A stretch of DNA of 64,000 nucleotides. Origin: an uncultured Solirubrobacterales bacterium (GTDB lineage: Bacteria > Actinomycetota > Thermoleophilia > Solirubrobacterales > Solirubrobacteraceae). The notes beneath the pieces were generated by a model, which ran no database searches, was not told the origin of the DNA, and worked only from the letters and a program-made list of their open reading frames with translations. The stretch spans positions 16,080-80,079 of the forward strand of contig CAVZAK010000036.1 in NCBI GenBank assembly GCA_963773165.1, read 5' to 3'. Shown here piece after piece: positions 6,577 to 43,640 of the stretch; position 1 is the first letter of the stretch; each line of letters opens with the position of its first letter. Both the position numbers and the translations under genes were made by a program.

Positions 6577-7834
6577 TCACTTCTTGTGCCGCTTGTGCTT
6601 GTGGTGCTTCTTGTGGTTCTTGTGCTTGGGCCCCTGCAGGGTGATGGTCTTGACGACCGAGCCAGCCGACCATACCTCGACCATCAGCCGACCGCTCCGG
6701 GACTTTGCGAGCAGCTTGACCGCGGCAGGCGAGAGCTTGAACGTGAACGCCTGCGAGCGCCGCGTCGCCAGCGTGTAGGTCAGCGACCCGACCACGATCG
6801 TCTTCGATTGGGTCTCGATCTTGGTCTTGGTCTTGCGGCCCTTCTTGCCTTTTTTCGAGTGGTGCTTGCTCTTGACCTGGACTCGGACCTTGACCTTGGC
6901 CCGCCGGGTCAGGGTCAGCGCGCCGACGCAGCTCGAGCCCGATGCGCCGGCGCACGCCAGCTGCACTGCGCCAACGTGCCGGCGAGACACCTTGGCGCTC
7001 GGGCCGATCGTCACCTTGCCGGGAGGCGGAGGGCCGGCGGACACGACGATCGTCACGGTGCCGCCACCGCCGCCATGGCTCCCGGGACCACCGCCCGCCG
7101 GCGTCGTCGTGGCCGTCACTCCGAACCTTCCCGTGCTCTTGGCGTGGGTGCTGTCGCCGCTGTAATCGGCGGTCAACGTGTAGCCGCCGGCGACAGTGGG
7201 AGTGAACGTCACACCGCACGTCGCGCTTCCGCCGGTGCCGGTGCTCGAGGGTTGCCACTGGCAGACTCCGGGAGCCCCGAATGTGCCGCTCGGTGACGAG
7301 CTGAAGTTCAGCGTGCCAAGTGGCGCTTGGATGGCCGTGGCGTCCGTCAGCGTCGCCGTGCACTGCGCGGAAGTGCCGATCTGGACCGTCGACGGCGAGC
7401 AGCTCAGCGTCGTCGTGGTCGGATCGACGGCCGTCGCCGCGCCGCTGCCACTGCTGCCGGCGTGAGTGCTGTCGCCGGCGTACGAGGCGTTGATCGAGTA
7501 GTCCCCGCCGGCGCTCGGCGTGAACGTCACCTGGCAGGATCCGCTCGCGCCTGTCCCCCCACTGGGGAGGGTGCAGCTCGCAGAGCCGCTCAGCATGCCG
7601 GTCGTCGGCGCCGAGGTGAAAGCGACGGGCCTCGAAGGCGCGCCCACAGGTGTGGCTGCCGTGTCGGTGACCGTCACGGTGCACGTCGTCGGCGAGCCGG
7701 TCGGTATCGATGCCGGCGAGCAGCTAACCGCCGTAGTCGTCGGGTCGAGCGCCGCGAACGCCGTGGCCGGGAGACCCAGCCATGGCGGTTCCCGTCGCGA
7801 GCACCAGCAATCCGAAGAGGCGGAGACGCGTCAT
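6577..7834 (-). CDS. secreted surface protein with two Cys-containing Ig-like repeats and a Lys/His-rich C-terminal domain; apparent +1 frameshift in the signal peptide near 7780
   Basis: ATG 7834 reads MTRLRLFGLLVLATGTAM; removing one base near 7780 continues LGLPATAFA-ALDPTTT into ORF 6577..7677; 1258-1=1257 nt = 419 codons. Confidence 0.72.
7105..7746 (-). repeat. two tandem ~107-aa Ig-like protein repeats
   Basis: DPTTTAVSCSP...CTVTVTD...CQVTFTP..GGDYSINASYAGDSTH versus DPTTTTLSCSP...CTATLTD...CGVTFTP..GGYTLTADYSGDSTH; four Cys each; left boundary approximate. Confidence 0.75.
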
Positions 7835-7839
7835 GCCCG

Positions 7840-10800
7840 CTACAGGGGGATCAGGTCCTGGTAGAGCAGGCGAAGCTCGCGCCCGCGCTGCGCCAGCGTG
7901 TAGAACCCGCGCGTCGCCCGCCGGTTGTCGGTCGGTAGCACCTCGTACTGGTTGATGCAGAGCCTGACGCTGCCGTTCGACGGGAGCTTGACGTTCCGGG
8001 CCACCCAGGTGGTGACTCCACCGACCGCTCTGCCGGCGTTCATCTTGATCGGCTGCCCGAATTGCTCCCAGCCGAGCGTCTGATCCTGGATCGCGGGCAC
8101 GCGACGCTCGATGATCAACTCGGCCTGCCCGGGGGCCACGTTGCGAGCAGCGGCAGCCGCCGAATAGGAGAAGCCGGACAGCGACACACTCGAGAGCTCG
8201 TGGGCGCCCTTCCGCACGACCGTCGCCGTCCGTCCTGGCTCGAGCGACATGATGTCGGCCAGGACGATCCGCGAGAGCTCGACCCCGGAGACTGAGTTGG
8301 GCTGGTAACGGGCCAGCGCCATTCGGACCATCGGCGTGTAAGTCGCACCTGTATTGATAGCGATGTCGCAGTACCAGAGGTTGCGGGTGGCGTCGAACAG
8401 GACCGGGTGTCCGGCGACGTTCACGCTGATCCCCGCGTTCTCCTCGATCGAGAGCCCGAACCCCGACTCGGTCGCGTTGGAGAACGTGGACACCCGTGGA
8501 TGAAGCGACGGGAGGGCTGAGCTCCCGAACACGGGGTCGGCTCCCCAGTCGGTCACGAACTCCGCCTCGTCGGACGGGATCGCCGAATTGATGCCACCGC
8601 CCCCGCCGATCGCCCGTTGGCGGCGGACGCCGTTTGCCGACCTCGCTCGAGCCCGCAGGATCGGGATGACAGGGCCGGCCTCCGCGCCGGGCCACGTGAC
8701 GACGCCCAGCAGCTCGTCGATCCCCGAGCTCCACCACGGCCGGTCGATGAACACTCGTAGCGCTGAGGGCGAGCGCTCGCTGACGGTCGTCTTCGAGTTC
8801 GGCTGTGTCAGCTGCCAGTCGTAGATCGGTACCACGTAGGCGACCTTCGGCGTGTCGGGCCGCGCGCTCGACGGGATGTCGACCAGCACCGGATGGGCCG
8901 TCGCCTTCGTCACGTTCGTGCCGGGCGCATAGAACTCCGAGAACTGGCTCGTGGCCACGCCGTGATACGTGACGTTGCGGTGCTTCGTGTCGTAGAACTC
9001 GTGGCGGGCGCTGAACCGATCGGTGGCGGTGTACAGCTGGCTCCCCGCATTGGCCAGCGGGTTCGTCGCGCTCGGAACCGTCGCGACGGGAGAATTCGTC
9101 GTCGGCCTCAGGTTCGGATTCGGGGCGCCGGGCCCCTGGACGGGCAGGTTGTGGATCGGATCGTCGACCGGATCGCCCCAGCTCGCCAGTAGATCGATCG
9201 TGCTCGTGCTCTTGGGGCTGTACGTGAGGTCGCCCTCGAGCGGTGCAAACGTGTCCCCGGCGGCGCGTGGCGGCGTCGGGAGATTGGGGAACTCGGGCGT
9301 CAGCAGCGGCTGCTGCACGGCGTACACGAGCTCCACCTGGACGGCGGGGGTGATCGACCAGTACTGGCCGCTCGCGGCCGCGGCCGCGTCGAACTGGTTG
9401 AACCACGAGCTGAGCCCGAACAACGGGATGTCCGCCGTGTCGCACGTCGAACACAGGTTGAGGATCACGGTGTCGCCCTTCGTGAGCGTGAACGTGATCA
9501 GTCGGTTGGTCGTGTCGACGTTCACCGCCTGGACGGCGTTCTGAGGCGGGTTGGTGCCCGGGACCAGCTTGAGCCCGTACGGCCGGTAGTCCGGCCAGTT
9601 GTCGCCGGAGGCCGGCGAGAAGTCGAACGGCACCGTCTGGCCGCCCAGGGTTCCGTCGGTGATCGTCAGCACGCCGCCACGGGCAAGCGGATCCGGGAGG
9701 TACGGGACGGGCGTTGCCAACGGGATCACGGTAGGCGCCGCGGTGGGGTCAGTCGGTGGGTCGGGGTACTGCGCGCTCTCGCGGTTGACGATCTCGTTGT
9801 AGGTCGCCATGTTGCCGTTGATCGCACCGCCGGACCCGTTGTCGAACATCGAGTGCCACTCAGCAAACGGCTCGGCGCACCGCTGCGGCGCCAGTGCTCG
9901 CAGCGAATCTGCCGCGCCATCGACGTCGCGGATAACCAGCCGTTTGAGCGACTCGGCGAGCCGCAGGATGCTCTGCCCGTACACATCCGGGGAACCGATC
10001 GGCTCGTGTCGGCCGTACACCATCGGCGCCGTCGCCTGCTGGGAATTGCTCGTTGTGGTGTCGACGGGCTGCGCGTTGTTGCAAACGTCGACGATCCGCG
10101 CGCGTAGCTGATATGTGTGGCCGAACCGGAGTGGCGGTAGTCGTCCCGGCGGCGGCGCGACCGTGATCGCGAGCTGGCTGAACGGGATTGGGTTGGGACT
10201 TGTGACCTGGCTGTCGGCGTCCTGGATCACTCTGCCCGGCCGTGGCACCGCGTTGCTCCAGCCGTTGTAGCGGAGCAGCACCTCGGAGACGTTTGCCTGC
10301 TGGGAGTTCGGATCGGTCGGCGAGTTCTGAACCCGCGGCGGCGCCTGGGTCGAGGATTCGGAGAACGGCGCCGACGACGGCCCGGAGAGCGTCTGCGAAC
10401 CGGCCTTGTACGTGCACAGCCACTCCGCGGTCGAGCGCCAGGTGTTGTTGGCCGCGTCGAAAACGTCGAGGACGTACCCGCGCACGAGGTCCTCGGCCGT
10501 CAGGTCGGGGACCGGGTTGCTGTTGACGACCGCGTCGTAGAGCAGGAATGAGCGGATGAGCGAGCTCGCGAACGTGACCCCGCGATTAACCTGTGTCAGC
10601 GTCAGGCCATTCGAGCGGATCATCGGCGGCGTCATCGGTGTCGTCGGTGCAGGAGCGACGGCCGCCGCGATGTACCGTGGATGGATCGCCGCCGGGGACT
10701 CGGTGAGCCGGATCTGGGTGGCGAAGTTCGAGGCTCTCAGCCCCGCGCCGTCGAAGTCGATCACGTGGGCGAGGAACGAGGTCGGATCGCCGACGGTGAG

Positions 10801-11727
10801 CTGGCGGCCGGTGATGTCCGAGCTGACGGCGTGGGGCTCGAACACGGTCGTGCTCGCGTCGCACTGCGTGCGCGGCGTGATCGACGAGTAGCCAGGCGAG
10901 AACGCAGGGGCTCCGGTCGGAAGCTGCAGGGACGCGGTGATGAACACATTGGTGTTGAGCGTGTTGGTGAGCAGCCGAACATTCTTGACCGGTACCAGCA
11001 GGTCGAACACAAGACCAAGCGCCCTCTGCAGCACACCGTGCTGTCCGATGAACGTCAGCGCCTTGTGGAAGTCGATATCCGGCACCACGGGCACGGCCTG
11101 CTCCCCCGCGGGCGGCAGGTGGTAGTACGCCTGCGCAGCGAACGACTCGGCAGGGCTTGCGCCTGAGAAGTCGTTCGCATGTGGGATGGTGCCGCCCTTC
11201 GACCGAGCCTTGCGGTCGTTCGCCAGTTTCTGCATTTGATCCTGAGCGGTGACGCCGACGAGCACGTCGGCGATGGGTCCGTAGACGCTCTTGAGCGTGT
11301 CGAGCGTGGGGACCTCGCTCGGTGAGTACTGGGTGTACTGGTTCTGGAGGAACCCAGTGACCTGCTGGACCGGATAGGACGCGATCGCGAGGTTCCTGAA
11401 CCTGTCCTGGATTGGTTCAGGCGGTCCATATTCGACACTTGTGGGGAAGAGCGCCGTCCACAGTGAGGAGTTCAGGCCGGAGGTGTCGAGCGCGACGGCG
11501 ATCGTCTGCGTGAACGTGCTGCCGAACGTGATGAGCCATTCCAGGCCATCTGCGGCCAGTGTCGACAGTGTCGACGGCCAGTCCTGCCAGTCGGAGAAAT
11601 CGGACAGCGTTCCGGTCGCGCCGCCGCTCAGCTCCGGCGAGATGAGGACCGACAGCTGGAGATTGGTGCCGCCCGAGTCGAGGCCGTTCGGCACGGCGGT
11701 CCACTTGATCGTCTGTGTCGGTGCCAA
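7840..11727 (-). CDS. large uncharacterised protein (1295 aa), no signal peptide
   Basis: true start TTG 11727 with AGGAGA RBS overlapping the upstream stop (ORF track overextends to 12072); MAPTQTIKWTAVPNG...LQLSVLISPEL; LPPLRFGHTYQLRARIVD; RMALARYQP. Confidence 0.8.
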   Translation of the reverse strand: MAPTQTIKWTAVPNGLDSGGTNLQLSVLISPELSGGATGTLSDFSDWQDWPSTLSTLAADGLEWLITFGSTFTQTIAVALDTSGLNSSLWTALFPTSVEYGPPEPIQDRFRNLAIASYPVQQVTGFLQNQYTQYSPSEVPTLDTLKSVYGPIADVLVGVTAQDQMQKLANDRKARSKGGTIPHANDFSGASPAESFAAQAYYHLPPAGEQAVPVVPDIDFHKALTFIGQHGVLQRALGLVFDLLVPVKNVRLLTNTLNTNVFITASLQLPTGAPAFSPGYSSITPRTQCDASTTVFEPHAVSSDITGRQLTVGDPTSFLAHVIDFDGAGLRASNFATQIRLTESPAAIHPRYIAAAVAPAPTTPMTPPMIRSNGLTLTQVNRGVTFASSLIRSFLLYDAVVNSNPVPDLTAEDLVRGYVLDVFDAANNTWRSTAEWLCTYKAGSQTLSGPSSAPFSESSTQAPPRVQNSPTDPNSQQANVSEVLLRYNGWSNAVPRPGRVIQDADSQVTSPNPIPFSQLAITVAPPPGRLPPLRFGHTYQLRARIVDVCNNAQPVDTTTSNSQQATAPMVYGRHEPIGSPDVYGQSILRLAESLKRLVIRDVDGAADSLRALAPQRCAEPFAEWHSMFDNGSGGAINGNMATYNEIVNRESAQYPDPPTDPTAAPTVIPLATPVPYLPDPLARGGVLTITDGTLGGQTVPFDFSPASGDNWPDYRPYGLKLVPGTNPPQNAVQAVNVDTTNRLITFTLTKGDTVILNLCSTCDTADIPLFGLSSWFNQFDAAAAASGQYWSITPAVQVELVYAVQQPLLTPEFPNLPTPPRAAGDTFAPLEGDLTYSPKSTSTIDLLASWGDPVDDPIHNLPVQGPGAPNPNLRPTTNSPVATVPSATNPLANAGSQLYTATDRFSARHEFYDTKHRNVTYHGVATSQFSEFYAPGTNVTKATAHPVLVDIPSSARPDTPKVAYVVPIYDWQLTQPNSKTTVSERSPSALRVFIDRPWWSSGIDELLGVVTWPGAEAGPVIPILRARARSANGVRRQRAIGGGGGINSAIPSDEAEFVTDWGADPVFGSSALPSLHPRVSTFSNATESGFGLSIEENAGISVNVAGHPVLFDATRNLWYCDIAINTGATYTPMVRMALARYQPNSVSGVELSRIVLADIMSLEPGRTATVVRKGAHELSSVSLSGFSYSAAAAARNVAPGQAELIIERRVPAIQDQTLGWEQFGQPIKMNAGRAVGGVTTWVARNVKLPSNGSVRLCINQYEVLPTDNRRATRGFYTLAQRGRELRLLYQDLIPL

Positions 11728-11735
11728 GGTCTCTC

Positions 11736-14700
11736 CTATGCGGCGAACGCCTGGCAGTAGGACTGCCAGTCCGGGAAGGCCATCTGGTCGGCGAACGTCG
11801 GTGGCGTCGTCGCCAGCGCGTGGCCGTGGCGCCCTGCGTTCAAGCTGACCGACGAGGAGCCGTTGCCGTTGTTGGTGAACGTCTTGGTCGCGGTGGCGCT
11901 GACCGAGAAGTGGAAGAACAGAATCGAGATCGAGATCGTCACCGTCGCGGTCCCGGTTACCGACGACGGTGGTTCCTCGTAGGTGAGGCTCAGGTCGAAC
12001 TCCAGCGACATCTGGATGATCCCGAGGATGCTCAGCGAGCCCGTGAGCTTCACGTAGCCGGTCAGGATGCACGTGTTCTTTCCGGTGCTCGGATCCAGGT
12101 CGTAGGTGAACTGGAACCCGGCGGTCAGGCTGACGGACCCCGAAGCCACGCCCAGGTTGATCGCGGCCATCGCGCCGAAGTCGAAACCGGCGTCGATCTC
12201 GTGGACCCCGTCGGTGCCGATCTTGATCCCGAAGTAACCACCGCCGCCGAAGATCGCCAGCGCCAGCTGGAACGGGTTGTCCCGGGTCGAGAACCCGAAG
12301 CCGAACACGGCGGGGGTCCCGTCGAACGGCAGCATGAAGTTCGCGTCGATGCCCACGTGCGAGAGCTGGAAAAGCCCGACGGCGATCGTCGGAAGCTGGA
12401 CGTCGAGGTCGGCGCTAATGCCCGTCGGAAGGAGCTGGATCTTCGGACCGCCACCGCCGGTGGCAAAGCTCATGAACTCCTCGAGCTGCTGCACGAACTT
12501 CAGCGGCCCGACGAACCCAACGCCATGGATGTCGACGGTGACGTCGGCCTTCTGCCCGGTGGCCGAGCTGAACGTCAACGAGTTGAACGTGACCTGGATG
12601 AACTGATCCGTGTCGGTGCTCATCAGGTTCACGATGAAGTTGGTGAGCTTGCCCTGGATCGTGAACTTCGAGTTGCTCGGATTGGCGAGGTCGGTCGTGA
12701 TCGTCGCGTCGAGCATGAAGGCCGTCGTCGTCCCACCGCCCCGTGGGGTGACGATCGGGTTGTTGGTGACGATGTCGGGCTTCCACGTCACGCTCGTCGT
12801 CACGACGGTCCCGCTCGTGGTGTAGGTGATCCTCAGCGCCTTCGCGTTCGGGATCTCGGGCGTGCCGCCATCGAGGAACGACGCCACCGGAGCGATCAGC
12901 TCTGACAGAGGAACGCCGCCGAGGATCCGGGCCTGGAGGTCATCGCTCAAGCCGGCGAAGACCGAGTTGGGGTCAAATGTGCCGTGGAAGATGTTGTCGA
13001 GATCGGCGACTGGGCCGAGGCTCCGCGATATGCCCTGGAGCTGGAGGTTCGGCGTCAGCACGCCACCGGAGCTGCCGTTGCCGAACGACAGGTTGGTGGC
13101 GTTGCTCGCGTTGAACAGGATCTCCATGTAGACGTTGCCGGCGTTGCCGGTTGGCTGCTGCGACGTGCTGAAGCCGGTCGTGATGTACGGCGGGTAGTAG
13201 GCGACCGCGGGCGATGGATTCCCTTTGAGCGGTGCGCCGCCGCTCGCCTGCTCTGCCGAAGCCAGCCGCACCACGGCCTGCGCGCCGGTGTCCTGGCCGT
13301 TGATCGACGGGGTTAGCGTCGGATAGCACTGAGCCTGGTCGTTGTCCTGGAACTGGGTCGTCGATCCACCGGCTCCCGGGCTGGCGCCGAACGACATCGA
13401 CTTGACCTGAAGGTCGGTGTCCCCAAGCGTCACCGACTGCGCGAACGCGATCGTCTGACCGCCGAACGACGCCAGGCGCACCGGGTCAGTCGAAGCGAGG
13501 CCGTTGTAGTGGTTCCGGACGATCGCCGCCGGCAGGCCGTTCGTGGCGTCCTCGTAGGCGACGAACACAGCCTCGGCGTTGAACGAGATGTCCCGGCCGA
13601 CCCAATCCGTGCCGACGAAATGCCACTTGAACGGAACCCCCGTTACGGTCGGCACATAAGGCGCGGCCGTGAAGAAGAACGACGCGTTCGATCCCAGCGC
13701 CGGGTTGAGGAAGTTGACCGCCGGGTCGAGGTCGGGCGTGCGCAGGGTGTTCAGCGTCAGGCTCCGGAACGGGAAGTCGCGGCTGTTGTTGGCGATCCCG
13801 AACGTCTCGGCGGGGTCGTAGCTGAGCGTCGGCTCGCGCACGACGAGATAGACGATCTGCCGCGACGTGGCCACGATCTCGCCGTTCAGCTCCTCGAACT
13901 GGCGCTCGGTCACGGTGACCTGCACGACGTGGTGGCCGAACGGGAACAGGAAGCCCTTGTTGACGACCTTCACGTATTGGTCGCGGCCGAGCGTCGCCAG
14001 GTGCTTCCACTCGACGAGCGACAGCGTCGGGTCGTCCCACACGGCATCTGAGTCGAGGAACCCCCCGCGCGATGTCAGCCACAACTTCTTCGCGGCGATG
14101 TCGGCCCGACCGGCGAGCGCGAAGTCGCTCGTCAACTTGACGATCTGATAGCGATCGTTTGGGGTGAGGGAGGTCCGGAACGGACCGAGCGCGCTCTCCG
14201 GCGGCCCCCCGCCCTTCAGCGTCGGCGGTCCTGGTGACGCGAACGTACGCGTTTGCGTGTCGAAGTTCCAGATCGCCCGGAGCGAGCCGCCGTCACCGGA
14301 ATTGGGGTTCGCGCTCTTCGCCAGTCTCGTGCGCCACAGCTCGGTCGACCCGTTGGCCGTGATGGGGTCGGTTGGATGGGTCCACTGCGATCCGGCCACG
14401 GGCGATATGGCCAGGTGCCACGGGAGCTCGATCGAGGTCTCCGTCGGTTCGGGCGCGCGGATCACCGGGGGATGGCCGAAGCCGAAGATCACGAGCGGCG
14501 GGGCCGGCCCGACCCTGGACACGGGCGAGATCCCTCCGGCACGCGACTCGTGTGCGTGCCTCCGAAGGTCGTGTTCCAGCCGTTCTCGCCGGTCGCGGGA
14601 GAGAAGATGAAGGAGGCTCGGCGGTGGTACGTACGCCGCCGCCGGCGTCAGGGCAAGCTCGAGTGGCGACCAGTTCAGCAGCCCGGCCACCGTGAACGGG

Positions 14701-15284
14701 ATCGAATGGACGCTCGCAGGCAGGTTGAAGGCGATCCGCGAGGGTTGCGCCAGCAGTGCGTTCGTAGATCCCGGCGACGCCGGGGTTTCGTTCCCCGGGC
14801 CGGAGTTGGTCTTGGTCTCGAAGTAAGCCTGCTCGGTCAGATGCTGGGGGACGAACGTGAACACGATCGTCGCCTTCCCCGGCCTCTTGCGGACCAGCTT
14901 CTGGCCCTTGCGAACGAGGTTGTAGCCGTCGACCTGCAGGAACAACATGTCCTCGCGCCGGCGCATCATCACCGTGATCGTCGGCGCGACCGGCGCCGTG
15001 ACCTGCAGCAACGGCGTGCCGAGCAGGGAGCGCGGGGCGACGGCAGACGGATTCCGAAGGAACGCCGCATGGGCCAGGTAGTCGACGGCCGCGGCGCCCG
15101 TGAGCGCTCCCGCTCCGGCGATGAACGCCCGGCGCGGGATGCCACGCCCGTTCGCAGTCGGTTCAGTCAGGCCACCGGCGCCCTCAGCGTTGGGGACGGG
15201 ATCGCCGCCGTTGCCTTTGGGCAGCGGTTCGTTGCCCTCTGCGGGAGCTTCCTCTCCAGCCGATCGATCCAACGGTCCCTCCAA
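11736..15284 (-). CDS. large uncharacterised beta-rich protein (1182 aa) with twin-arginine (Tat) signal
   Basis: AGGAGG upstream of TTG; IPRRAFIAGAGALTGAAA; amphipathic beta-strand-rich C-terminus ending WQSYCQAFAA. Confidence 0.8.
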   Translation of the reverse strand: MEGPLDRSAGEEAPAEGNEPLPKGNGGDPVPNAEGAGGLTEPTANGRGIPRRAFIAGAGALTGAAAVDYLAHAAFLRNPSAVAPRSLLGTPLLQVTAPVAPTITVMMRRREDMLFLQVDGYNLVRKGQKLVRKRPGKATIVFTFVPQHLTEQAYFETKTNSGPGNETPASPGSTNALLAQPSRIAFNLPASVHSIPFTVAGLLNWSPLELALTPAAAYVPPPSLLHLLSRDRRERLEHDLRRHAHESRAGGISPVSRVGPAPPLVIFGFGHPPVIRAPEPTETSIELPWHLAISPVAGSQWTHPTDPITANGSTELWRTRLAKSANPNSGDGGSLRAIWNFDTQTRTFASPGPPTLKGGGPPESALGPFRTSLTPNDRYQIVKLTSDFALAGRADIAAKKLWLTSRGGFLDSDAVWDDPTLSLVEWKHLATLGRDQYVKVVNKGFLFPFGHHVVQVTVTERQFEELNGEIVATSRQIVYLVVREPTLSYDPAETFGIANNSRDFPFRSLTLNTLRTPDLDPAVNFLNPALGSNASFFFTAAPYVPTVTGVPFKWHFVGTDWVGRDISFNAEAVFVAYEDATNGLPAAIVRNHYNGLASTDPVRLASFGGQTIAFAQSVTLGDTDLQVKSMSFGASPGAGGSTTQFQDNDQAQCYPTLTPSINGQDTGAQAVVRLASAEQASGGAPLKGNPSPAVAYYPPYITTGFSTSQQPTGNAGNVYMEILFNASNATNLSFGNGSSGGVLTPNLQLQGISRSLGPVADLDNIFHGTFDPNSVFAGLSDDLQARILGGVPLSELIAPVASFLDGGTPEIPNAKALRITYTTSGTVVTTSVTWKPDIVTNNPIVTPRGGGTTTAFMLDATITTDLANPSNSKFTIQGKLTNFIVNLMSTDTDQFIQVTFNSLTFSSATGQKADVTVDIHGVGFVGPLKFVQQLEEFMSFATGGGGPKIQLLPTGISADLDVQLPTIAVGLFQLSHVGIDANFMLPFDGTPAVFGFGFSTRDNPFQLALAIFGGGGYFGIKIGTDGVHEIDAGFDFGAMAAINLGVASGSVSLTAGFQFTYDLDPSTGKNTCILTGYVKLTGSLSILGIIQMSLEFDLSLTYEEPPSSVTGTATVTISISILFFHFSVSATATKTFTNNGNGSSSVSLNAGRHGHALATTPPTFADQMAFPDWQSYCQAFAA

Positions 15285-15390
15285 CGGAGGTGCGCCCCTC
15301 CTGTTACCCCAGTGCAGCGTTCAGACGCGAGATCCTATAGCGACCGTCAAGGGGCGCTACCCGGGATCCGATGCGGCGCGGCGAAGCCGT

Positions 15391-16047
15391 TTACGCAGTC
15401 GGGCCCGAGTTGTCCCCGGGATCATCGGGAGCGCGGATCCACTGAACGATCCGTCCGTGCGAAATCACGAAATTCGTGCGCGCCGTCTGGCCGGCACCGC
15501 CGCCACAGTTCGAGCCACCCGGTCCCGGCCTCCCGGTCAGCTCAAAGAGCGCGTTGACGTAGCGACCTCGCATATCGGCCGACAGGAACGTCGCGCCGCA
15601 CGGAAGCGTCTCGTTCGCCGCCTCGGCCTGCGCCGCTGTGTCGATCCGGATCACCGAGACCTGTCCATTGGCCGCAGCGCCGTTGATCATCTCGCTCGGA
15701 TGCGCAAAGAGCCGGGCGGCGCTATGTACGTCCCCGTCGCGGAGCGCGTCCGACCACTGCCGGATCACCTGCACCGCCGCCGGATTGGCCTTGATCCCGG
15801 TCGGCCCCGGCGTCGGGATCGTGAACGTCCCGCCAGTCCCGCCCGGCGAGGCGGAGTTGGGCTGCGCCTGCGGGACCGTGTTCGGCGGCCCTTCCGGGAC
15901 CGTGTTCGGCGGGCTGGTTTCCACGCCCGCCTGCCGTTGGGTGCTGGTTCGATGCGACGTCTGGCTGGAGCCGCCCGAGCCGCACCCGCCGAGTACCAGC
16001 GCCGCCACCGATACGACGCCCAGCACCCGGAAGCGCGCCGCGGTCAT
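15391..16047 (-). CDS. lipoprotein with Pro/Thr-rich linker and SnoaL/NTF2-like C-terminal domain
   Basis: lipobox VLGGC; WSDALRDGDVHSAARLF...FVISHGRIVQWIR. Confidence 0.7.
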   Translation of the reverse strand: MTAARFRVLGVVSVAALVLGGCGSGGSSQTSHRTSTQRQAGVETSPPNTVPEGPPNTVPQAQPNSASPGGTGGTFTIPTPGPTGIKANPAAVQVIRQWSDALRDGDVHSAARLFAHPSEMINGAAANGQVSVIRIDTAAQAEAANETLPCGATFLSADMRGRYVNALFELTGRPGPGGSNCGGGAGQTARTNFVISHGRIVQWIRAPDDPGDNSGPTA

Positions 16048-16088: not shown

Positions 16089-16496
16089 TTAGGAAGACAC
16101 GACTGCGTTGCCACCCCGCTCGATCATGACCGAGGTCGCCTTCACGACCGCCGTCGCCCCCACGCCGGCGGCCAGTCCGAGCTCCTCGACCGAGTCTCGC
16201 GTGATCGCGGCCGTGATCAGGAACGGTCCGGCCTCCAGCTCGACGAGCGCCATCACCCCGTCGGACTCGACCGAGCGGACCACCCCGGTGAAGCGGTTGC
16301 GCGCCGAGCGCTCGGTTCCGGTTCGGTGGCGCACAGGGCGTTGGCTGAGTCTCACGATCTCGGAAACGGGAACCAGCCGGCGGTTGCGCGCGTCGCGCTT
16401 AGTCTGAATCTGACCCTTACGATCCCAGCGCCGCAGCGTGTCGATGCTGACTCCGAGCGCGGAGGCCGCCTCACCGAGCGAAAGGTCACCTGCCAT
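16089..16496 (-). CDS. MerR/excisionase-like HTH + TOBE domain regulator (molybdate/tungstate-sensing type)
   Basis: EAASALGVSIDTLRRWDRKG HTH; TOBE motifs SARN, ITRDS, VKATSV. Confidence 0.88.
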   Translation of the reverse strand: MAGDLSLGEAASALGVSIDTLRRWDRKGQIQTKRDARNRRLVPVSEIVRLSQRPVRHRTGTERSARNRFTGVVRSVESDGVMALVELEAGPFLITAAITRDSVEELGLAAGVGATAVVKATSVMIERGGNAVVSS

Positions 16497-16523
16497 GTCG
16501 TCCCAGACGGTACACCGCAGCCG

Positions 16524-17036
16524 TCAAGCGGTCGTCGCGCCAGGGGTCCCGCAGGCCCGCAGGCCATAGCCGGTGGCGAGTGACGCCGCCGGACTGGCGC
16601 GTAACGCGGCCTCGGCGTTCGTCACGGCCTGGCGGTCGTTCTGCTTCGCCGCGGCGGCGAGCTTGCGGTAGTTCTCCACCTCCTGGCCCAGGGCCTCGAA
16701 GTACTGCGCGAGCGCCGCCTTATCCCGCGCGTCCTCAGGCGGGGCGTTGAGCGCGCGCAGCTGCGTCACTTCGCCCTGCACGATCGGCAGCACAGCCGCC
16801 ACGTACTGGTCCAGCGCGGTCGACGGGGAGAGCGATCGCGTCTGGCGCAGAGCCGAGGCGCAGATCGCGTCCGCGCGGGCGATGAAGTCGCTCTTCGTGT
16901 AGGTGCTCCCACACCCGACGATCAGTGCGGCCGTCAGGAGCGCGGAACCGAGCACAGCCAGGCGGCGAGACCGCGGCGGCGTGATCTCGGCACCCAGGCT
17001 GCGCTCACAACCGCCCTTCTGCACCGGCCCAAACAT
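16524..17036 (-). CDS. hypothetical lipoprotein
   Basis: lipobox LIVGC followed by FIARADAIC and a helical domain; start uncertain. Confidence 0.65.
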   Translation of the reverse strand: MFGPVQKGGCERSLGAEITPPRSRRLAVLGSALLTAALIVGCGSTYTKSDFIARADAICASALRQTRSLSPSTALDQYVAAVLPIVQGEVTQLRALNAPPEDARDKAALAQYFEALGQEVENYRKLAAAAKQNDRQAVTNAEAALRASPAASLATGYGLRACGTPGATTA

Positions 17037-17133
17037 ACAGCCGACCGGGTCTCGCAGCCCTCGCGGCGCTCCGGTCTGCCTACGCCGTGCCCTCCCCCAG
17101 TTGCGTGAGAGCGGAGTCGCCAGGCGACGTCAT

Positions 17134-17164
17134 CTATGCATTGCCTATGCACCGGCTCTATGCT
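17134..17164 (+). promoter_or_regulatory. three CTATGC direct repeats overlapping a TATGCT -10 box
   Basis: CTATGC at 17134, 17145 and 17158; TATGCT at 17159-17164 lies six nt before ATG 17171. Confidence 0.5.
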
Positions 17165-17170
17165 GCGCCG

Positions 17171-19243
17171 ATGATTGAGATACCTGTCGTTCCCTATCCA
17201 TCCCTGCGCCGGGGCGGGGAACGCCTTCGTTTCGGCACTGGGCAAAGGCTTTGCACCGCACCTCTTCTCGGGCTATTGGCGGCGGTAGCGCTCCTGTTGA
17301 TGCCCGCCCTCGCTAACGCCGACAGCTCGTCGACCCTTACGGTCGTCGGCACGAGCGACGTTAGTGACTCCGGCCTGGTCGCCAACCTGATCCAGAAGGA
17401 CTTCCACCAGGCCTATCCGCAGTACACGTTCAAATACATCCCCGGCGCCACCGGCACCGCGATCACCCAGGCCGAGAGCGGCTCACAGGGAGCCAGCGCT
17501 CTGATCGTCCACTCGGCGACGCTCGAGAACCAGTTCGTGGCCAAGGGCTATTCCTACGAGCGGTACGGCCGCGCGATCTTCACGAACGACTTCGTGCTGG
17601 GCGGGCCGAAGGGCGATCCTGCGGGCGTCGCGGCGAACGGACCCCACAACATCGCCCAGGCGTTCGCCGACATCGCCGCAGCTGGCATCAACGGCGGTGG
17701 CACGCCGAAGGCAACGCTGGTCTCGCGGGGCGGTACGCCAGGGACCACCGTCGAGGAGCACAAGATCTGGGGTCTGGTCAGCAGCGCCCACCTCGCTCCG
17801 GCGGGACTGCTGCTCTGCACCGTTAACTCGACGGACGGCGGCGGCGAGACGCCCATCGCCGCAGGTCAGGGCGTCACGGCCTCGGGCCAGGCATGCCCGA
17901 ACGGTGGCGCGCTCCCGACCGGCGGCGCTTTGCCGAAGTGGTACATCGTTACCGGTGCCCAGCAGGGCGCGAACGTCCAGCTGGCCAACACCTGCGCCGG
18001 CTACCCGAGCGGCGCCAACACGTGCTACGTCCTAACCGACCGAGGCACGTACGACTACCTCGCGTCGGGAACCGATCCGGCCGGCAGCATCCCGAACCTG
18101 CAGATTGTGACCAGGGACGACGCCACATCGGCCCCCGGGGGTCAGTACGGGCTGATCAACTACTTCCACGCGTACATCATCAACCCGGCGATGCCGAACG
18201 AGCAGATCAACCTGCCCGCGGCGAAAGATCTGCTCAACCTGCTGACTTCGCCCGCGTTCCAGTCACAGCTGGCGGGGTATCTCGCCCACACCAGCGACCC
18301 CAGTGGCGCTCCGTTCAAGGCGGACGCGTCCCCAATCATCACCGAGCACGGACTTCCCCGCTCAGCCAAGGCGGGACGCCGAGTGACGGTCACAGGCACA
18401 GTGACGAACGCCGAGCCCGGTTATCCGGCTCTCTCGGGCAAAACGGTCTCGGTCGACGAGATCGTGGGTGGGGTTCCGGTGCCCGTCGCCAGCGGGACGA
18501 CTAACGCGACTGGCGCCTACACGATCAGCTTCCGGCCGACGTCGAGTGGTTCCTATGAGGTCGGAACTCCTCAGATCGCTCAGATCGAGGTGCCGACGAT
18601 CACGCCCGTGTTCGGGGACCTCCTCTCGCCCGGGGCGACTGCACCTGTCAAGGTGGCCGTCCACAGCGCGATCGCCAAGCTCACCGTGAAGTCGGTCGGT
18701 GGCAAAGCGCTGGTGGTCGGGTCGGTCACTCCCGCCAAGGGGCACGTTAAGGCGTCCGTCACGGTCCTGGCCCGCCTGGCAGGATCCAAGGGCCGCTTCA
18801 AGCGCGTCGCGACCGCGCGCCTGAGGTCGAGCGCCGGCAACTTCGCCGTCGCCGTCCCGCTGCGCGCCGGCCACTGGCAGCTCGAGGTGACGTTCAAGGA
18901 TCCGAAGGAGGTCGTCGCGACCTCGCGAAAGGTGAAGGTGACCGTCGGCGGCAAGCCCGCCACGAGCGTCACGCTCAGATCGGCGAAGGTCGAGCACGGG
19001 ACGCTGTCGATGAGCGGGAGCGTCAGTTCGGCGGCCGGAGGCAAGGTCGAGGCGCTCGCGCTCAACACGACCGGAGGCGCGGCGCGCTTCAAGGTTCTCG
19101 GAACGGCGAAGCTGGGCCCGCATGACACCAAGTTCTCGTTCCACGGGAAACTGAGGAGCGGGACGTGGGTGCTGGCCGTCGAGTACGTGCCGAACGGGCA
19201 ACCACCGAGCGTCTCGCAACTGAGGACGTCCACCGTACGCTAA
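17171..19243 (+). CDS. divergent TupA-like (tungstate/molybdate PBP2) substrate-binding protein with C-terminal Ig-like basic domains
   Basis: signal peptide PALANA-DSS (no lipobox); DSGL, VHS..LE.QFV, NDFVLGGP.GDPAGV, SRG..GT, LTDRGT, N.....INP; about 270 aa beta-rich Lys/Arg C-terminal extension. Confidence 0.8.
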   Translation: MIEIPVVPYPSLRRGGERLRFGTGQRLCTAPLLGLLAAVALLLMPALANADSSSTLTVVGTSDVSDSGLVANLIQKDFHQAYPQYTFKYIPGATGTAITQAESGSQGASALIVHSATLENQFVAKGYSYERYGRAIFTNDFVLGGPKGDPAGVAANGPHNIAQAFADIAAAGINGGGTPKATLVSRGGTPGTTVEEHKIWGLVSSAHLAPAGLLLCTVNSTDGGGETPIAAGQGVTASGQACPNGGALPTGGALPKWYIVTGAQQGANVQLANTCAGYPSGANTCYVLTDRGTYDYLASGTDPAGSIPNLQIVTRDDATSAPGGQYGLINYFHAYIINPAMPNEQINLPAAKDLLNLLTSPAFQSQLAGYLAHTSDPSGAPFKADASPIITEHGLPRSAKAGRRVTVTGTVTNAEPGYPALSGKTVSVDEIVGGVPVPVASGTTNATGAYTISFRPTSSGSYEVGTPQIAQIEVPTITPVFGDLLSPGATAPVKVAVHSAIAKLTVKSVGGKALVVGSVTPAKGHVKASVTVLARLAGSKGRFKRVATARLRSSAGNFAVAVPLRAGHWQLEVTFKDPKEVVATSRKVKVTVGGKPATSVTLRSAKVEHGTLSMSGSVSSAAGGKVEALALNTTGGAARFKVLGTAKLGPHDTKFSFHGKLRSGTWVLAVEYVPNGQPPSVSQLRTSTVR

Positions 19244-19251
19244 CGGGCGCG

Positions 19252-20679
19252 ATGGACCGGCGAACCGACTTCGGCCAACAGCGATGGTCGGCCAACCGCC
19301 GCCCCGGGGGAATCCTGGGGCGGCGGTTCGCGTTGGCGCTCGGGCTCGCCTTCTTCGCCTTCGCCAGCGGGGTAGCGGCGGCCGATCAGACCGTCGTCAG
19401 CGCCACCGTCTATCCGTCGAGGGGTGGCAGCGTCACCACCCCGGCGGCCACGCTTTCAGGCTTGAACAACTGCCAGCAGTATCCGACAGAGCAGTCGGGG
19501 TGGAGCCCGCTCACGCTGTACCCGTCGGGGCAGCCCTATCAGCCGGCGCAGGGGGCCTCTTGGCAGCTCTCGACGGTGCTCACCTGCGGCATGAACGTCC
19601 CCTTGAACAACGTCACGGGCGTGCAGGTGTACAGCCCGCGCTACGGCTTCGAGGCGCCACTCACGAACGCCGAGCTGACCGATGCGACCCAGTTCCACGA
19701 TCCGGCGGCGCCCGATGCGCTGCCTGTCATCTCCAACGACGAAGGTCAGAACACCTACGTCCGCCCGTGGCTCGGAGGTGGCGATCAAAACGCCAAGGAC
19801 CAGGTGGTGCAGGACGGCTCGCCCGTGACGATCGTCGTCTACGAGAACGGTGCCGAGCTGACGGTCGTCGCTTCCGCCAGCAAGGTGTCAAAGAGCTCGA
19901 AGCACAAGAAGGTCCGCTTCAGCGCCACCGTCCGCGCCCAGTCGGGTTCGACGGTCCCCACCTCGGCACTCGCCTGGAGCTGGAACTTCGGGGATGGCGG
20001 AACGTCCCGCAGCCAGACCCCGGAACACTCCTTCGTGGCCGGGAAGTTCCCGGTCACGGTTCAGGTCACCGATCGCAAGACGGGTGCGGGCGGTACCGAC
20101 ACGATCGACGTGAACGCTGGCAACCCCGGTGGGAACGGAAACAGTCCGACCGGCCCGAACAACAGCATTGGCAGCCATCCCGGTGGATCTGCCGGTAGAC
20201 CCAACAACTCGGCCAACACCGGCAAAAGTCACTCCGGCAAAGACACGACCACAAGCGGGCAGAACAATCAAACGACCACCACTTCCACGGAGGGCTCAGG
20301 CGGTACGACCGGCACGGGCACCGCCGCGGGCACGACGACAGCGTCCGTCGCTCCGAACCCCACGCCCGCCTCACCGAACCCGACCCCTAGCTCGGCGACG
20401 CACCCCCCCGCACGCGTGAACAAGCCGCCCGCCGCCACCGGCCCACTCGTGACCGGACGACTGATCAGTGACGTGACCCCGCTACCCGCAAACGACAGCC
20501 CGCTGGTTAAGCTCGCGCAGGGGCCGCCGGCGACGGCGCCCGCGATCCAGCGTGCGAACAGCGCGTCGTTAGTACCTGCCCTGGCAGCCGGGTTCGTGGT
20601 CCTCCTGCTCTTGGGGCTGGGCGCGGGCAACGAGCTGCGCGGCCGTCGCGACTGGCGGACGCTTCTGTTCCGTAGCTGA
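19252..20679 (+). CDS. surface-anchored PKD-domain protein
   Basis: signal peptide, two-Cys N-domain, PKD motif WSWNFGDG, Ser/Thr/Pro/Gly linker, C-terminal TM plus basic tail; start moved to ATG 19252. Confidence 0.78.
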   Translation: MDRRTDFGQQRWSANRRPGGILGRRFALALGLAFFAFASGVAAADQTVVSATVYPSRGGSVTTPAATLSGLNNCQQYPTEQSGWSPLTLYPSGQPYQPAQGASWQLSTVLTCGMNVPLNNVTGVQVYSPRYGFEAPLTNAELTDATQFHDPAAPDALPVISNDEGQNTYVRPWLGGGDQNAKDQVVQDGSPVTIVVYENGAELTVVASASKVSKSSKHKKVRFSATVRAQSGSTVPTSALAWSWNFGDGGTSRSQTPEHSFVAGKFPVTVQVTDRKTGAGGTDTIDVNAGNPGGNGNSPTGPNNSIGSHPGGSAGRPNNSANTGKSHSGKDTTTSGQNNQTTTTSTEGSGGTTGTGTAAGTTTASVAPNPTPASPNPTPSSATHPPARVNKPPAATGPLVTGRLISDVTPLPANDSPLVKLAQGPPATAPAIQRANSASLVPALAAGFVVLLLLGLGAGNELRGRRDWRTLLFRS

Positions 20680-20702
20680 TTTCCTCGGCCACGAGAATCG
20701 AC

Positions 20703-21479
20703 GTGCTTTTGATCTTCGCCCTGACCAGCCACGACATCGACGAGGTGATCTTCCACGTCGCCAACGTGCTGCTGGTGCCCGTGCTGATCCTCGCCCTGCT
20801 CGCGCTGGCGCTGGTGATCTTCGAGCTCGGCCGGTTCGTGATTGAGCTGCGCGGGCGTCGAGGGCGACGGTTCGACACCCTGTCGCGGAGTACGGACAGC
20901 GCTCGGGCTGCGCTGTTCAAAGGCGACCGCGCGGGCGCGGAGGCGGCTGTCAGCGGGCTCGCCCAGAGTCCCGCCATGGCATCGACACTGTCGTTCATCG
21001 TCGAACACGCGCGGACTCCTGGAGACGATCACGAGCTCAACAAGGCGCTCGCGGATTTCGACTTCGACTCTCAACGCCGTCTCGGGCGGACGCGCCTGCT
21101 GGTCCGCGCCGGACCGGCGCTGGGCCTGATGGGCACGCTGATTCCACTGTCGCCCGCGCTGACCGGCCTGGCCAGCGGCAACACCGCCGCGCTCAGCCAG
21201 AACCTGCGCGTGGCCTTCAGCGTGACGGTCGTCGGGCTGATGATCGGCGCCGTCGCCTACGGGCTCTCGCTCTCGCGCGACCGCCTGTACGGCCAGGACC
21301 TCTCCGACCTCCAGTACGTGGCCGCCGTCCTCACCGATCCGACGCTGCCTCCGCCGAAAGAGCCGGCGCCGGTGCCGGAAGTCAAGCCCACCGAACCCGC
21401 GCCGCAGGCCGACGACGCGCCGGCGCCACCGACCGAGCCGGCACCGACCCCTGCCCCCACACAAGGAACGACGACATGA
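20703..21479 (+). CDS. MotA/TolQ/ExbB proton channel family protein
   Basis: GPALGLMGTLIPLSPAL...NLRVAFSVTVVGL. Confidence 0.88.
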   Translation: MLLIFALTSHDIDEVIFHVANVLLVPVLILALLALALVIFELGRFVIELRGRRGRRFDTLSRSTDSARAALFKGDRAGAEAAVSGLAQSPAMASTLSFIVEHARTPGDDHELNKALADFDFDSQRRLGRTRLLVRAGPALGLMGTLIPLSPALTGLASGNTAALSQNLRVAFSVTVVGLMIGAVAYGLSLSRDRLYGQDLSDLQYVAAVLTDPTLPPPKEPAPVPEVKPTEPAPQADDAPAPPTEPAPTPAPTQGTTT

Positions 21480-41549: not shown

Positions 41550-41942
41550 TGTTTGACTCCGTGTTCGTGGTTGACAGACAGCTCGTTGCTCGGCGCCGCC
41601 AGCGACGGCGCTGTGACTAAGCGATCACGGTCCGCGGGCACGACTCGGCGTGCCCGCGCTGACTGCGCGGAGCATCAATTCCTCATCCACCCGGCCACCG
41701 AGCAGCGGCCGAGTCACTATCCCCCGAGTTACCTGGTCACACCCTCTGACGCTGTGGCGCGACTATTCCTTCCCACGGCCGCAGCTTCGATGTCGGCTGG
41801 CGCCCGTCCAGCGGATCGAGCATCCACCGTCGAGTATTCGTCCGTCCAACCCATCCAGATGGCACAAAACGCCGACCGATCAACTAGATTGGCGACCGAC
41901 GCATCGAGCAGTTCACATCACGAGCTGGAGGGGACGGGACCG

Positions 41943-43640
41943 ATGTTGAGAGCTTTGGGGCGATCACTGATCGCGTGCGTGACGACCGGCGCCGCAGTTC
42001 TGGCCTTCTCGGCCAGCGCCGAGGCGATCAGTAGCCCATTCACGATCGGGTCGAACACGCACGGCTTGCCTTCGCAGCCGGCCGTTGCCGTCGATTCGAC
42101 CGGCACCGCGTACATCGTCTGGGACGATCAGATCCCGACCGGGTCCCAGCCGGCCGACACGGTTCTGAACTTCTGCAAGGTCTCGAAGGCCGCGCCCCAC
42201 TGCAGCCCGGTTGAGCTGCAGGTTCCCGATCCCAGTCAGGCCCTGTTCTTCGACCCACCCTCGGTGCTCGTCGACGGCACCACGGTCCGTGTGTTCGAGG
42301 AGGTGGGCGGCGCGGTAAACCAGACCGAGGACGGGATCGACGAGTGGATCTCGACAGACGGCGGTGCCACCTTCACCCAGTTCCCCTACTCGCTCAGCAA
42401 TCCGCAGGTCGGCGATACCGAGGGCACTGGACCGATGCCGGTGATCCCCTTGTTCGGCGACAACATCGGCTTCGGTTACGTGTCCGCGATTCAGAATCCG
42501 CTGTTCCAGGCCAACTCGGTGGTCGCCCCTCAGGACTACTCGTCGGCAACTACGCCGATGCCGCCATCGGCTTCGCTCAACCCCGCTCCGGACAACTACA
42601 CCGTCGGCAATCTCGGCGGCGAGTTCGCCTCGCAGCTGACCGGTACGACCGGCATCCTCGGGGTCTTCCAGCTGATCGAGACCGGCCCTTGCCCGTCGAC
42701 CGACGGTCTCGTCTACGCCTACTCGCCATTGTCTGCGGCGACCACCAACAGCGAGCTCAACACGACCACCGGACAGCCCGGAAGCCCATGGGCACCGCTT
42801 GGCTCGGTCACCTGCAACGCGGACTACCCGGCGGTCACGAGCGGCCCGGCTGGCCTCGGCCTGCTGGCGACGAATGACACGACCCTGTCGGCGCAGAAGC
42901 TTCAGTTCCGCCGTTTCACTCCGCCGGCGAAGTGGAGCGCTCCGTTTACTGTGACCGACAACGTTGGGCTCGAGCCAACCGTGTCTCAGGACAGCCACGG
43001 CGGGATGTACGCCACGTTCCTCAACAACGACCATGGCGTGCAGCTCGCGTATAGCTCAAACGCAGGCAGCAACTGGTCAGGGCCGGTCACGCTGTTCGGC
43101 ATCAAGGACGAGACCTCTGCCGACTCGCTTGCCAGCGCTGTCAACGAGGAGGGTCAGGGATGGGCGGTCTACGCCTTCCAGGGCACCGAGTACGCCCAGC
43201 CGTTCGTGAAGGCTGACGCCGGCCCGCCCGAGGACAGCCATCTCAAGCTCAAGCCCGGGACGTTCAAGGGCTCCTCCAGCGGCGGATCGATTGTCAAGAA
43301 GGCCAAGAGCCACGACACGTCGACCGTCACCTACTTCGACACGGGGGCCGCGAAGACGACGTTCAAGGTCATCGAGCTGAAGAAGGGCTACAAGGTGGGA
43401 CACGGTGCGTGTAAGGCGCCTCCGAAGCACGGGCATGCGCCCAAGCACGCGCACCAATGCACGCGCGACGTGTCGAAGGGCAGCTTCTCCCACCAGGACA
43501 GCGCCGGCTCCAACAGCTTCGTCTTCAGCGGACGCGTGAGCGGCCACCGGCTGTCCCGTGGAAGCTATGAGCTCAAGGCGACACCCAAGCTGGGCACGCT
43601 GACAGGCAAGACCGTCTCGGCGAAATTCAAGATCGACTGA
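41943..43640 (+). CDS. secreted beta-rich (BNR/propeller-like) protein with basic C-terminal domain
   Basis: start ATG 41943 with GGAGGG RBS; signal ...SASAEA; STDGGATF and SSNAGSNW Asp-box-like motifs; Lys/His-rich C-domain with a C...C loop. Confidence 0.75.
   Translation: MLRALGRSLIACVTTGAAVLAFSASAEAISSPFTIGSNTHGLPSQPAVAVDSTGTAYIVWDDQIPTGSQPADTVLNFCKVSKAAPHCSPVELQVPDPSQALFFDPPSVLVDGTTVRVFEEVGGAVNQTEDGIDEWISTDGGATFTQFPYSLSNPQVGDTEGTGPMPVIPLFGDNIGFGYVSAIQNPLFQANSVVAPQDYSSATTPMPPSASLNPAPDNYTVGNLGGEFASQLTGTTGILGVFQLIETGPCPSTDGLVYAYSPLSAATTNSELNTTTGQPGSPWAPLGSVTCNADYPAVTSGPAGLGLLATNDTTLSAQKLQFRRFTPPAKWSAPFTVTDNVGLEPTVSQDSHGGMYATFLNNDHGVQLAYSSNAGSNWSGPVTLFGIKDETSADSLASAVNEEGQGWAVYAFQGTEYAQPFVKADAGPPEDSHLKLKPGTFKGSSSGGSIVKKAKSHDTSTVTYFDTGAAKTTFKVIELKKGYKVGHGACKAPPKHGHAPKHAHQCTRDVSKGSFSHQDSAGSNSFVFSGRVSGHRLSRGSYELKATPKLGTLTGKTVSAKFKID

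Follow-up and report, generated by a model that had tools for sequence, protein, structure and literature searches.

The window analysed here is a stretch of 64,000 nucleotides (nt) from an uncultured Solirubrobacterales bacterium (contig CAVZAK010000036.1, positions 16,080 to 80,079). Between positions 6577 and 15284 of the window, three genes, called A, B, and C here, follow one another on the minus strand. A and B encode two very large proteins and form a cassette that is found in many bacteria, while C encodes a smaller protein with immunoglobulin (Ig)-like repeats. The A-B cassette, its distribution, and its possible role as an exported complex of the cell envelope are the subject of this text.

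Gene A (11736..15284, minus strand), as read from its open reading frame (ORF) and translation, encodes 1182 amino acids (aa; 124.9 kDa) and is the signal-bearing subunit of the pair. Its start codon is the TTG at 15284, preceded by AGGAGG, and its stop codon is the TAG at 11738-11736. Because the N-terminus MEGPLDRS is kept in homologues down to about 70% identity, the start site is fixed. The signal region (residues 1-76; 15057..15284, minus strand) consists of a long acidic and Gly-rich n-region, RRAFI, an h-region, and an AHA site. Residues 48-76 read GIPRRAFIAGAGALTGAAAVDYLAHA, and the codons of the two arginines are located at 15129-15134. Once the predicted signal is cleaved off, A has a mass of about 117.5 kDa. 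The original prediction, which described a 1182-aa protein with a motif of the twin-arginine translocation (Tat) type, is borne out. The Shine-Dalgarno sequence GGAGG of A is pairable with CCTCC just before the start codon (15284-15310, minus strand). The leader of A matches no Rfam family and folds no better than shuffled sequence (z = -0.15). Neither a sigma-70-like promoter upstream of A nor a convincing terminator is found.

Gene B (7840..11727, minus strand) encodes 1295 aa (138.6 kDa) without a signal peptide. Its TTG start at 11727 is 8 nt past the stop of A, and in the sequence its Shine-Dalgarno AGGAGAG (11731..11737, minus strand) overlaps the TAG stop codon of A (11738-11736). This overlap indicates that A and B are translationally coupled. 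A database protein (P0117) that is 98% identical to B likewise has 1295 aa. The N-terminus of B has no twin-arginine motif and no hydrophobic stretch, and the first beta-strand of its model begins at residue 4. The length of B, the ribosome-binding site overlapping the stop of A, and the lack of a signal peptide had all been predicted, and they hold on each point. A longer ORF of 1410 aa (7840..12072), given in the program-made ORF list, is read-through in a high-GC frame and not the gene.

Pairing and distribution of A and B

A profile search with A found at least 595 loci in 185,579 species genomes, and one with B found at least 533 loci. The best 80 loci of each search were examined for pairing. 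B is directly downstream of A on the same strand at 77 of the 80 A-profile loci as well as at three further loci (L001-L003; together with the 80 they make up a set of 83 loci). Conversely, A is directly upstream of B at 72 of the 80 B-profile loci. In seven of the eight exceptions the locus begins where its contig begins, and in the eighth A and B are on two contigs of one metagenome-assembled genome (MAG). The gaps between A and B are mostly 3-50 nt. The pairing is near-obligate: almost every genome with one of the two has inherited both. That such pairs recur as hypothetical proteins in diverse bacteria had been suggested in the original prediction, which asked for a neighbourhood analysis of obligate pairing. 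The profile searches and the pairing counts verify the recurrence, and independent homologues are rare. In the Chlorobiota MAG-306, A (L021) and B (L161) exist on separate contigs of one genome. In the Armatimonadota genome SJ842 (L032), a long-form A stands without a B in the 10 kb that follow it downstream.

An exhaustive profile search places 6,794 clusters at 50% identity in the A family (E<=1e-3), 3,693 of them at E<=1e-30. All 116 homologues of A are annotated as 'hypothetical'. The hosts include Actinomycetota, Acidobacteriota, Chloroflexota, Armatimonadota, Verrucomicrobiota, Bacteroidota, Proteobacteria, Cyanobacteria, and others. The cassette thus spans more than 10 phyla, both monoderm and diderm, and is also found in a few archaeal MAGs. 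Among the cultured carriers are Streptomyces herbicida, Lentzea fradiae, Catellatospora citrea, and Nonomuraea typhae, and further Geobacter hydrogenophilus, Bradyrhizobium erythrophlei, and Thiothrix caldifontis.

The pair is not accompanied by any conserved third gene. When the 1,069 ORFs flanking the 83 loci were clustered, no family was common to more than 6 of them. The best candidate was a GT2 glycosyltransferase in a few Acidobacteriaceae; otherwise the genes directly beside the pair are unrelated ones (peptidase M64, kinases, and regulators among them). At three loci of Acidobacteriaceae and Terracidiphilus (L031, L058, and L079), a GT2 glycosyltransferase gene is directly upstream of a signal-less A, and in L079 a gene for a 2OG-Fe(II) oxygenase is downstream of B. 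These neighbours may point to a lineage-specific modification of the A-B pair.

In a viral collection of 2.9 million contigs, the pair is found on a single one (IMG/VR UViG_3300004093_000021; L165/L166), separated by about 2.7 kb from the head module of a prophage (terminase, portal, protease, and major head protein). The pair is there either at the edge of the prophage or as a cargo gene. The contigs of two A homologues (P0041 and P0048) and of two B homologues (P0147 and P0150) are all 650,509 nt long, which hints at two copies of the cassette in a single genome.

Domains and folds of A and B

The AlphaFold2 (AF2) model of A, built from an 81-sequence alignment, has a predicted local distance difference test score (pLDDT) of 81.2 and a predicted template modelling score (pTM) of 0.70. 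Residues 1-96 have low pLDDT and form a disordered N-terminus in which the model places the signal helix (51-77). A beta-sandwich is modelled at about residues 103-202 and a mixed region at residues 500-816. The most conserved core of the alignment (residues 396-488; 13821..14099, minus strand) consists of four long beta-strands with pLDDT of about 97. It carries GRDxYVKVVxKGFLFPFGH, and R434, D435, and R461 are invariant. The C-terminal all-beta domain (residues 818-1137; 11874..12833, minus strand), as assigned by DSSP of the model, meanders through about 20 strands, the longest with 18 residues, and has an FGGGGYF motif. In most strands between residues 947 and 1121, one face is apolar, with 0-3% charged residues by per-face composition across 81 homologues. 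This charge-free face is continuous over about 12 consecutive strands, and the opposite face is made of Ser, Thr, and charged residues. A ends in a helix with a conserved WxxYCxAF (residues 1164-1182; 11739..11795, minus strand; helix 1164-1181 in the model). The strings that had been quoted from A are located at residues 1049-1061, 1074-1086, 1110-1120, and 1173-1180.

About half of the best members of the A family have a long form of 1,450-1,800 aa (e.g., P0055, L009, L095, and L114). It contains an extra domain of 400-500 aa between a textbook Tat signal and the A core, and in some cases a coiled-coil insert before the C-terminal domain. Neither the extra N-terminal domain nor the insert matches any family. 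A profile search with the C-terminal domain of A returned fragments of the A family only and no such module elsewhere.

The AF2 model of B (residues 1-1200) has pLDDT 88.7 and pTM 0.71. It is a chain of about 8-9 beta-sandwich domains with an N-terminal helical region and flexible loops at residues 502-513 and 1023-1044. Per-block conservation in the alignment is highest around residues 533-547, LRFGHTYQLRARIVD (10087..10131, minus strand; model strand 537-547). The corresponding motif, LPRLRFGxxYxLRARxVDxAGN, is better conserved than any other in the B family and is part of a beta-sandwich. Profile-profile comparison indicates that A and B are not paralogues. Both are conserved over their full length in the alignments, with no variable toxin tips.

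Neither protein matches a known family. Whole A and B have no matches in Pfam or NCBIfam, and ten A and B sub-segments searched against Pfam at E<=10 gave noise only. PHROGs and PADLOC have no match for either protein, and no PDB sequence is matched by the single sequences or by the family profiles. With Foldseek, the model of A matches nothing in the PDB at E<=1e-3. Its best weak fold matches are SlpA, LptD, PelB, porins, microsomal triglyceride transfer protein (MTP), and ApoB. To known beta-barrels the matches are local and weak (E>1e-3, template modelling score (TM) by target length <=0.27, root-mean-square deviation about 20 A). Among the viral models of BFVD, two match A at E<=1e-3, both with TM 0.11. 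The model of B has 29 matches in the PDB at E<=1e-3, all to multi-sandwich proteins and with TM 0.06-0.22: complement C3/C5, A2ML1, integrin legs, PrgB, mastigoneme, and the HPI S-layer protein. E. coli alpha-2-macroglobulin (E 1.7e-3) falls just below the cut-off. The resemblance of the B model appears to be that of generic beta-sandwich chains, in domain type and not in architecture.

The original prediction recognised no catalytic motif in A or B, and this holds as far as the libraries see. No known enzyme fold explains either protein in the hidden Markov model and fold searches. The relatives that had been suggested for the pair fared less well. DUF6603, AsmA/TamB/Vps13, and Tc toxins share with A and B large size and beta-rich, glycine-rich segments. 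Kinship with these or with tail proteins is not supported by the searches. DUF6603 has no Pfam match to the whole proteins or to the segments at E<=10. AsmA, TamB, and Vps13 have no Pfam match and are absent from the top 50 PDB fold matches of A. Tc toxins have no Pfam match (RHS/YD repeats), and TcA and TcB folds are absent from the fold matches. For tail proteins, PHROGs gave nothing, the BFVD tail matches have TM <=0.11, and there are no tail-gene neighbours. A search of the literature found no described counterpart of the cassette, which is a member of no described family and far from every known system.

Export and role of the A-B pair

The N-terminus of A has three parts of a Tat-type signal. 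Residues 48-57 (GIPRRAFIAG) resemble the motif S/T-R-R-x-F-L-K. The Gly/Ala-rich h-region FIAGAGALTGAAAV is weakly hydrophobic, with a 15-residue hydropathy maximum of 1.73. An AxA site, DYLAHA/AF, follows it. RRxF[LI] is found in nearly all actinobacterial A homologues above 45% identity, and one A homologue (P0034) carries the Pfam domain PF10518 (TAT_signal). Textbook motifs such as LSRRELLGLAG and VSRRRFLYLTGAG exist in Armatimonadota, Kapaibacteria, Symbiobacteriaceae, Anaerolineales, Lentzea, and others. In a census of two locus sets (63 and 57 loci), for which the longest possible ORFs were used, Tat-like signals are found at 30 and 17 loci, respectively (about 40%), and another hydrophobic N-terminus at 5 and 7. 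None of 71 B homologues has a signal. The motif on A, noted from the sequence of the window, recurs in distant branches of the family, and the absence of a signal from B, noted likewise, extends to these 71 homologues.

Both proteins probably reach the cell wall and meet peptidoglycan, since two B homologues (P0175 and P0181) carry a PG_binding_1 domain and an A homologue (P0105) carries LysM.

Known Tat hitchhiker complexes (e.g., the small and large subunits of [NiFe]-hydrogenase, DmsAB, and PaoABC) are similar to A-B in several respects. The twin-arginine signal is present on one subunit only, the signal-less partner is encoded next to it and translationally coupled, and the type of signal implies folding before export. 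PaoABC is assembled before it is exported (PMC4273604). Unlike A and B, the known hitchhikers are cofactor-containing redox enzymes of up to about 140 kDa, often with dedicated chaperones. A and B are novel, show no visible cofactor, come to about 256 kDa together, and are signal-less in about one fifth of the family. Structural, non-redox surface components can also depend on Tat, as in the Tat-fimbriae ('tafi') of Haloarcula hispanica (PMC11821415). Tafi are built up as filaments from small subunits that are linked by donor-strand exchange, and nothing at A-B suggests a filament.

We propose, tentatively and at somewhat less than an even chance, that the A-B cassette builds a large non-enzymatic complex of the cell envelope, co-exported by Tat in this lineage. 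A (about 117 kDa when mature) and B (139 kDa) would fold and associate in the cytoplasm. The twin-arginine signal of A would then carry the pair across the membrane via Tat, with the signal-less B as a hitchhiker. Where A has a signal, it is of the folded-cargo type, which fits assembly before export as in the hitchhiker complexes. At about 256 kDa, the product would be too large for diffusion through peptidoglycan, where the upper limit for free passage is about 50 kDa (PMC9527704), and would remain in the wall zone. There, the beta-sandwich chain of B would serve as a scaffold or binding arm, and the charge-free face of the C-terminal sheet of A would contact a membrane, a lipid, or another hydrophobic partner. 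The complex is most likely non-enzymatic, and its role could be reinforcement of the envelope or a barrier, ligand capture, or handling of hydrophobic molecules. A more specific version, in which the cassette is a new class of bacterial envelope machine, a heterodimer of about 256 kDa is assembled in the cytoplasm and moved whole through Tat, and the charge-free sheet of A holds or crosses membranes or lipids, is doubtful. If it were true, this heterodimer would be the largest Tat cargo known, and a machine of thousands of lineages from soil and sediment would have been overlooked.

Several points weigh against the proposal. The A protein of the window has no TAT_signal match (Pfam PF10518 and the NCBIfam TAT model, E<=0.1), and its n-region of 50 aa is unusually long. 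Of the A homologues in the census, 14 of 63 and 10 of 57 (about 20%) leave fewer than 30 residues ahead of their first conserved strand, even with the longest possible ORF, and so lack space for a signal peptide. Since neither protein has a signal in these lineages, co-export by Tat does not hold for the whole family and is perhaps not ancestral. Among Tat cargoes, FdnGH is about 140 kDa, a size that A-B would exceed. No A-B fusion protein is found, and the 660-aa extension of P0344 is not B. Peptidoglycan-binding modules also occur on proteins that are released by lysis. Amphipathic strands are also the normal look of an ordinary beta-sandwich core, and in the model the apolar face of A could equally be the buried core of a sandwich.

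The same sheet can be read in other ways. In one, A and B are a released two-component pore-forming toxin or antagonism factor: B binds the target, and the hairpins of A insert in a foreign membrane, possibly after an oligomer is formed. The hairpins of A are long and amphipathic, with one face of Ser, Thr, and charged residues and the other apolar, and its best, though weak, fold matches are membrane beta-barrels and autotransporter beta-domains. The cassette is patchy over more than 10 phyla and moves as a self-contained unit; its signal-less versions could be released by lysis, and the peptidoglycan-binding modules could target the walls of other cells. However, TM to the barrels does not exceed 0.27, the searches returned no domain or fold of a known toxin or pore-former, and no immunity-like small gene, secretion gene, or lysis gene is conserved nearby. 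Full-length conservation without variable tips is not what a toxin would suggest either, and this reading is unlikely. Large barrels and A (the antiparallel C-terminal meander with one apolar face being shared with SlpA, LptD, PelB, porins, and MTP/ApoB) also differ in that A lacks any sequence signature of theirs and its family is common in monoderm phyla, which have no outer membrane. The presence of the cassette in monoderm as well as diderm phyla likewise counts against a carrier or bridge for lipids or other hydrophobic molecules (as in LptD/LptA, AsmA/TamB, or MTP/ApoB), to which the apolar sheet of A would bind them. The continuous charge-free face over about 12 strands, the inferred envelope location, and weak Foldseek matches of A to LptDE, MTP, ApoB100, and LBP are consistent with such a carrier. 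Those matches are all at E>1e-3 with TM <=0.15, no AsmA, TamB, or Lpt family signature was found, and lipid-metabolism genes are not conserved nearby, so that a carrier is decidedly unlikely.

Another group of alternatives starts from B or from the missing signals. B might be a trap or shield resembling alpha-2-macroglobulin. In the wall zone, it would bind and hold attacking proteases or other factors, and A would be its partner. In bacteria, alpha-2-macroglobulins likewise belong to the envelope and come in two-gene cassettes. The top fold matches of B include complement C3/C5, A2ML1, and E. coli alpha-2-macroglobulin, and its two flexible loops (502-513 and 1023-1044) would suit a trap. B shares with macroglobulin-domain proteins (C3/C5, A2ML1, and ECAM; E about 1e-5 to 1e-3) the build of a long beta-sandwich chain and a likely extracytoplasmic location. 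Unlike them, it lacks the CxEQ thioester motif and any A2M or MG match in Pfam, and no thioester-type helical domain is evident in the secondary structure of its model. TM is 0.06-0.17, which any beta-sandwich chain gives. A trap is very improbable. The pair might also be an intracellular complex (e.g., of unrecognised defence or storage), from which only A or neither protein exits, the RR being a membrane anchor or having no role. About one fifth of the A homologues and all B homologues are without a signal, and the cassette behaves as a mobile island. Set against this, PADLOC has no match, neither nuclease nor nucleotide-binding domains are found with Pfam, deep branches of the A family repeatedly show Tat motifs, and peptidoglycan-binding domains are found on both families. 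Chains of Ig/MG-like domains are, moreover, typical of extracytoplasmic proteins. We consider an intracellular complex quite unlikely. Finally, domesticated phage tail or adsorption proteins, or a part of a tail-like injection machine, would account for the marginal BFVD matches to models of tail fibre and host-specificity protein J (TM <=0.11) and for the pair beside a prophage head module in IMG/VR. With nothing in PHROGs, one viral contig in 2.9 million against at least 595 loci in 185,579 genomes, and no tube, sheath, baseplate, or tape-measure genes near any of the loci examined, the phage-tail reading is close to refuted.

If A and B are co-exported as proposed, the pair would stretch the size range of Tat cargoes and would be a rare case of a non-redox hitchhiker. 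A near-obligate pair of proteins of 120-140 kDa that is kept across phyla likely does something basic at the cell envelope of soil bacteria. Large as it is, the A family is without relatives in Pfam, NCBIfam, and the PDB, and no fold is recognised in A. The present value of the cassette is that of a well-defined and widespread target, not of a demonstrated mechanism, and the cultured carriers make co-export testable.

Gene C and other features of the window

Gene C (6577..7834, minus strand) encodes a signal peptide, Ig-like repeats, and a Lys/His-rich basic tail, and is frameshifted in the window. The ATG at 7834, 5 nt past the stop of B, opens the signal peptide, and this frame ends after 36 codons. 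The frame of the Ig repeats (Big_3_5 and Big_1) is open from 7830 to 6577. The span from 7834 to 6577 is 1258 nt, which is no multiple of three. In pairwise alignment with the corresponding locus of a 96%-identical genome (L084), where C is intact with 418 aa, the sole length difference within C is one extra G in the window at about 7777. It lies in a G-run (7775..7777, minus strand) and breaks the frame of C at about codon 20. The extra G is also absent from all three short-read soil-metagenome contigs that span the site, one of which is otherwise identical. Because L084 and these contigs lack it, the frameshift is probably a consensus error rather than a sign of a pseudogene. The 418-aa C protein is probably real, and the window as written does not encode it. 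Of the 418-aa secreted Ig-repeat protein originally predicted, the signal peptide, the Ig repeats, and the 5-nt gap therefore stand, while the frame is broken in the window.

Among the 83 loci, C is present only in two close Solirubrobacterales relatives (L004 and L006). It is a lineage-specific neighbour outside the conserved A-B cassette. The suggestion that A-B is displayed via this third protein is unsupported, given this distribution, the lack of any third conserved gene at the 83 loci, and the broken frame. Over roughly its final 120 residues (6577 to about 6950, minus strand), C is extremely Lys/His-rich, and it ends in KHKNHKKHHKHKRHKK; the isoelectric point of the protein is 10.1. No LPxTG motif is found. 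The tail could serve as an electrostatic anchor to the wall or to a polyanion.

Upstream of the operon, an odd gene cluster occupies 16089-21479. It includes genes for a ModE-like MerR+TOBE regulator (16089-16496, minus strand), a PBP_like_2 protein of 718 aa (17087-19243), a PKD-domain protein of 504 aa (19165-20679), and a MotA/ExbB-family protein (20703-21479), next to which are ABC permeases. Two small genes on the minus strand encode 218 aa (15391-16047) and 170 aa (16524-17036). They have GC content of coding type at third codon positions and no family match. The 218-aa gene is also found upstream of A in the closest relatives (L004 and L084) and not elsewhere. Further along the window, a 695-aa ORF (41553-43640, plus strand) has coding-type composition and no Pfam match, and an NhaA-type Na+/H+ antiporter fused to a DsbA-like thioredoxin domain is encoded at 53296-55185 (minus strand).

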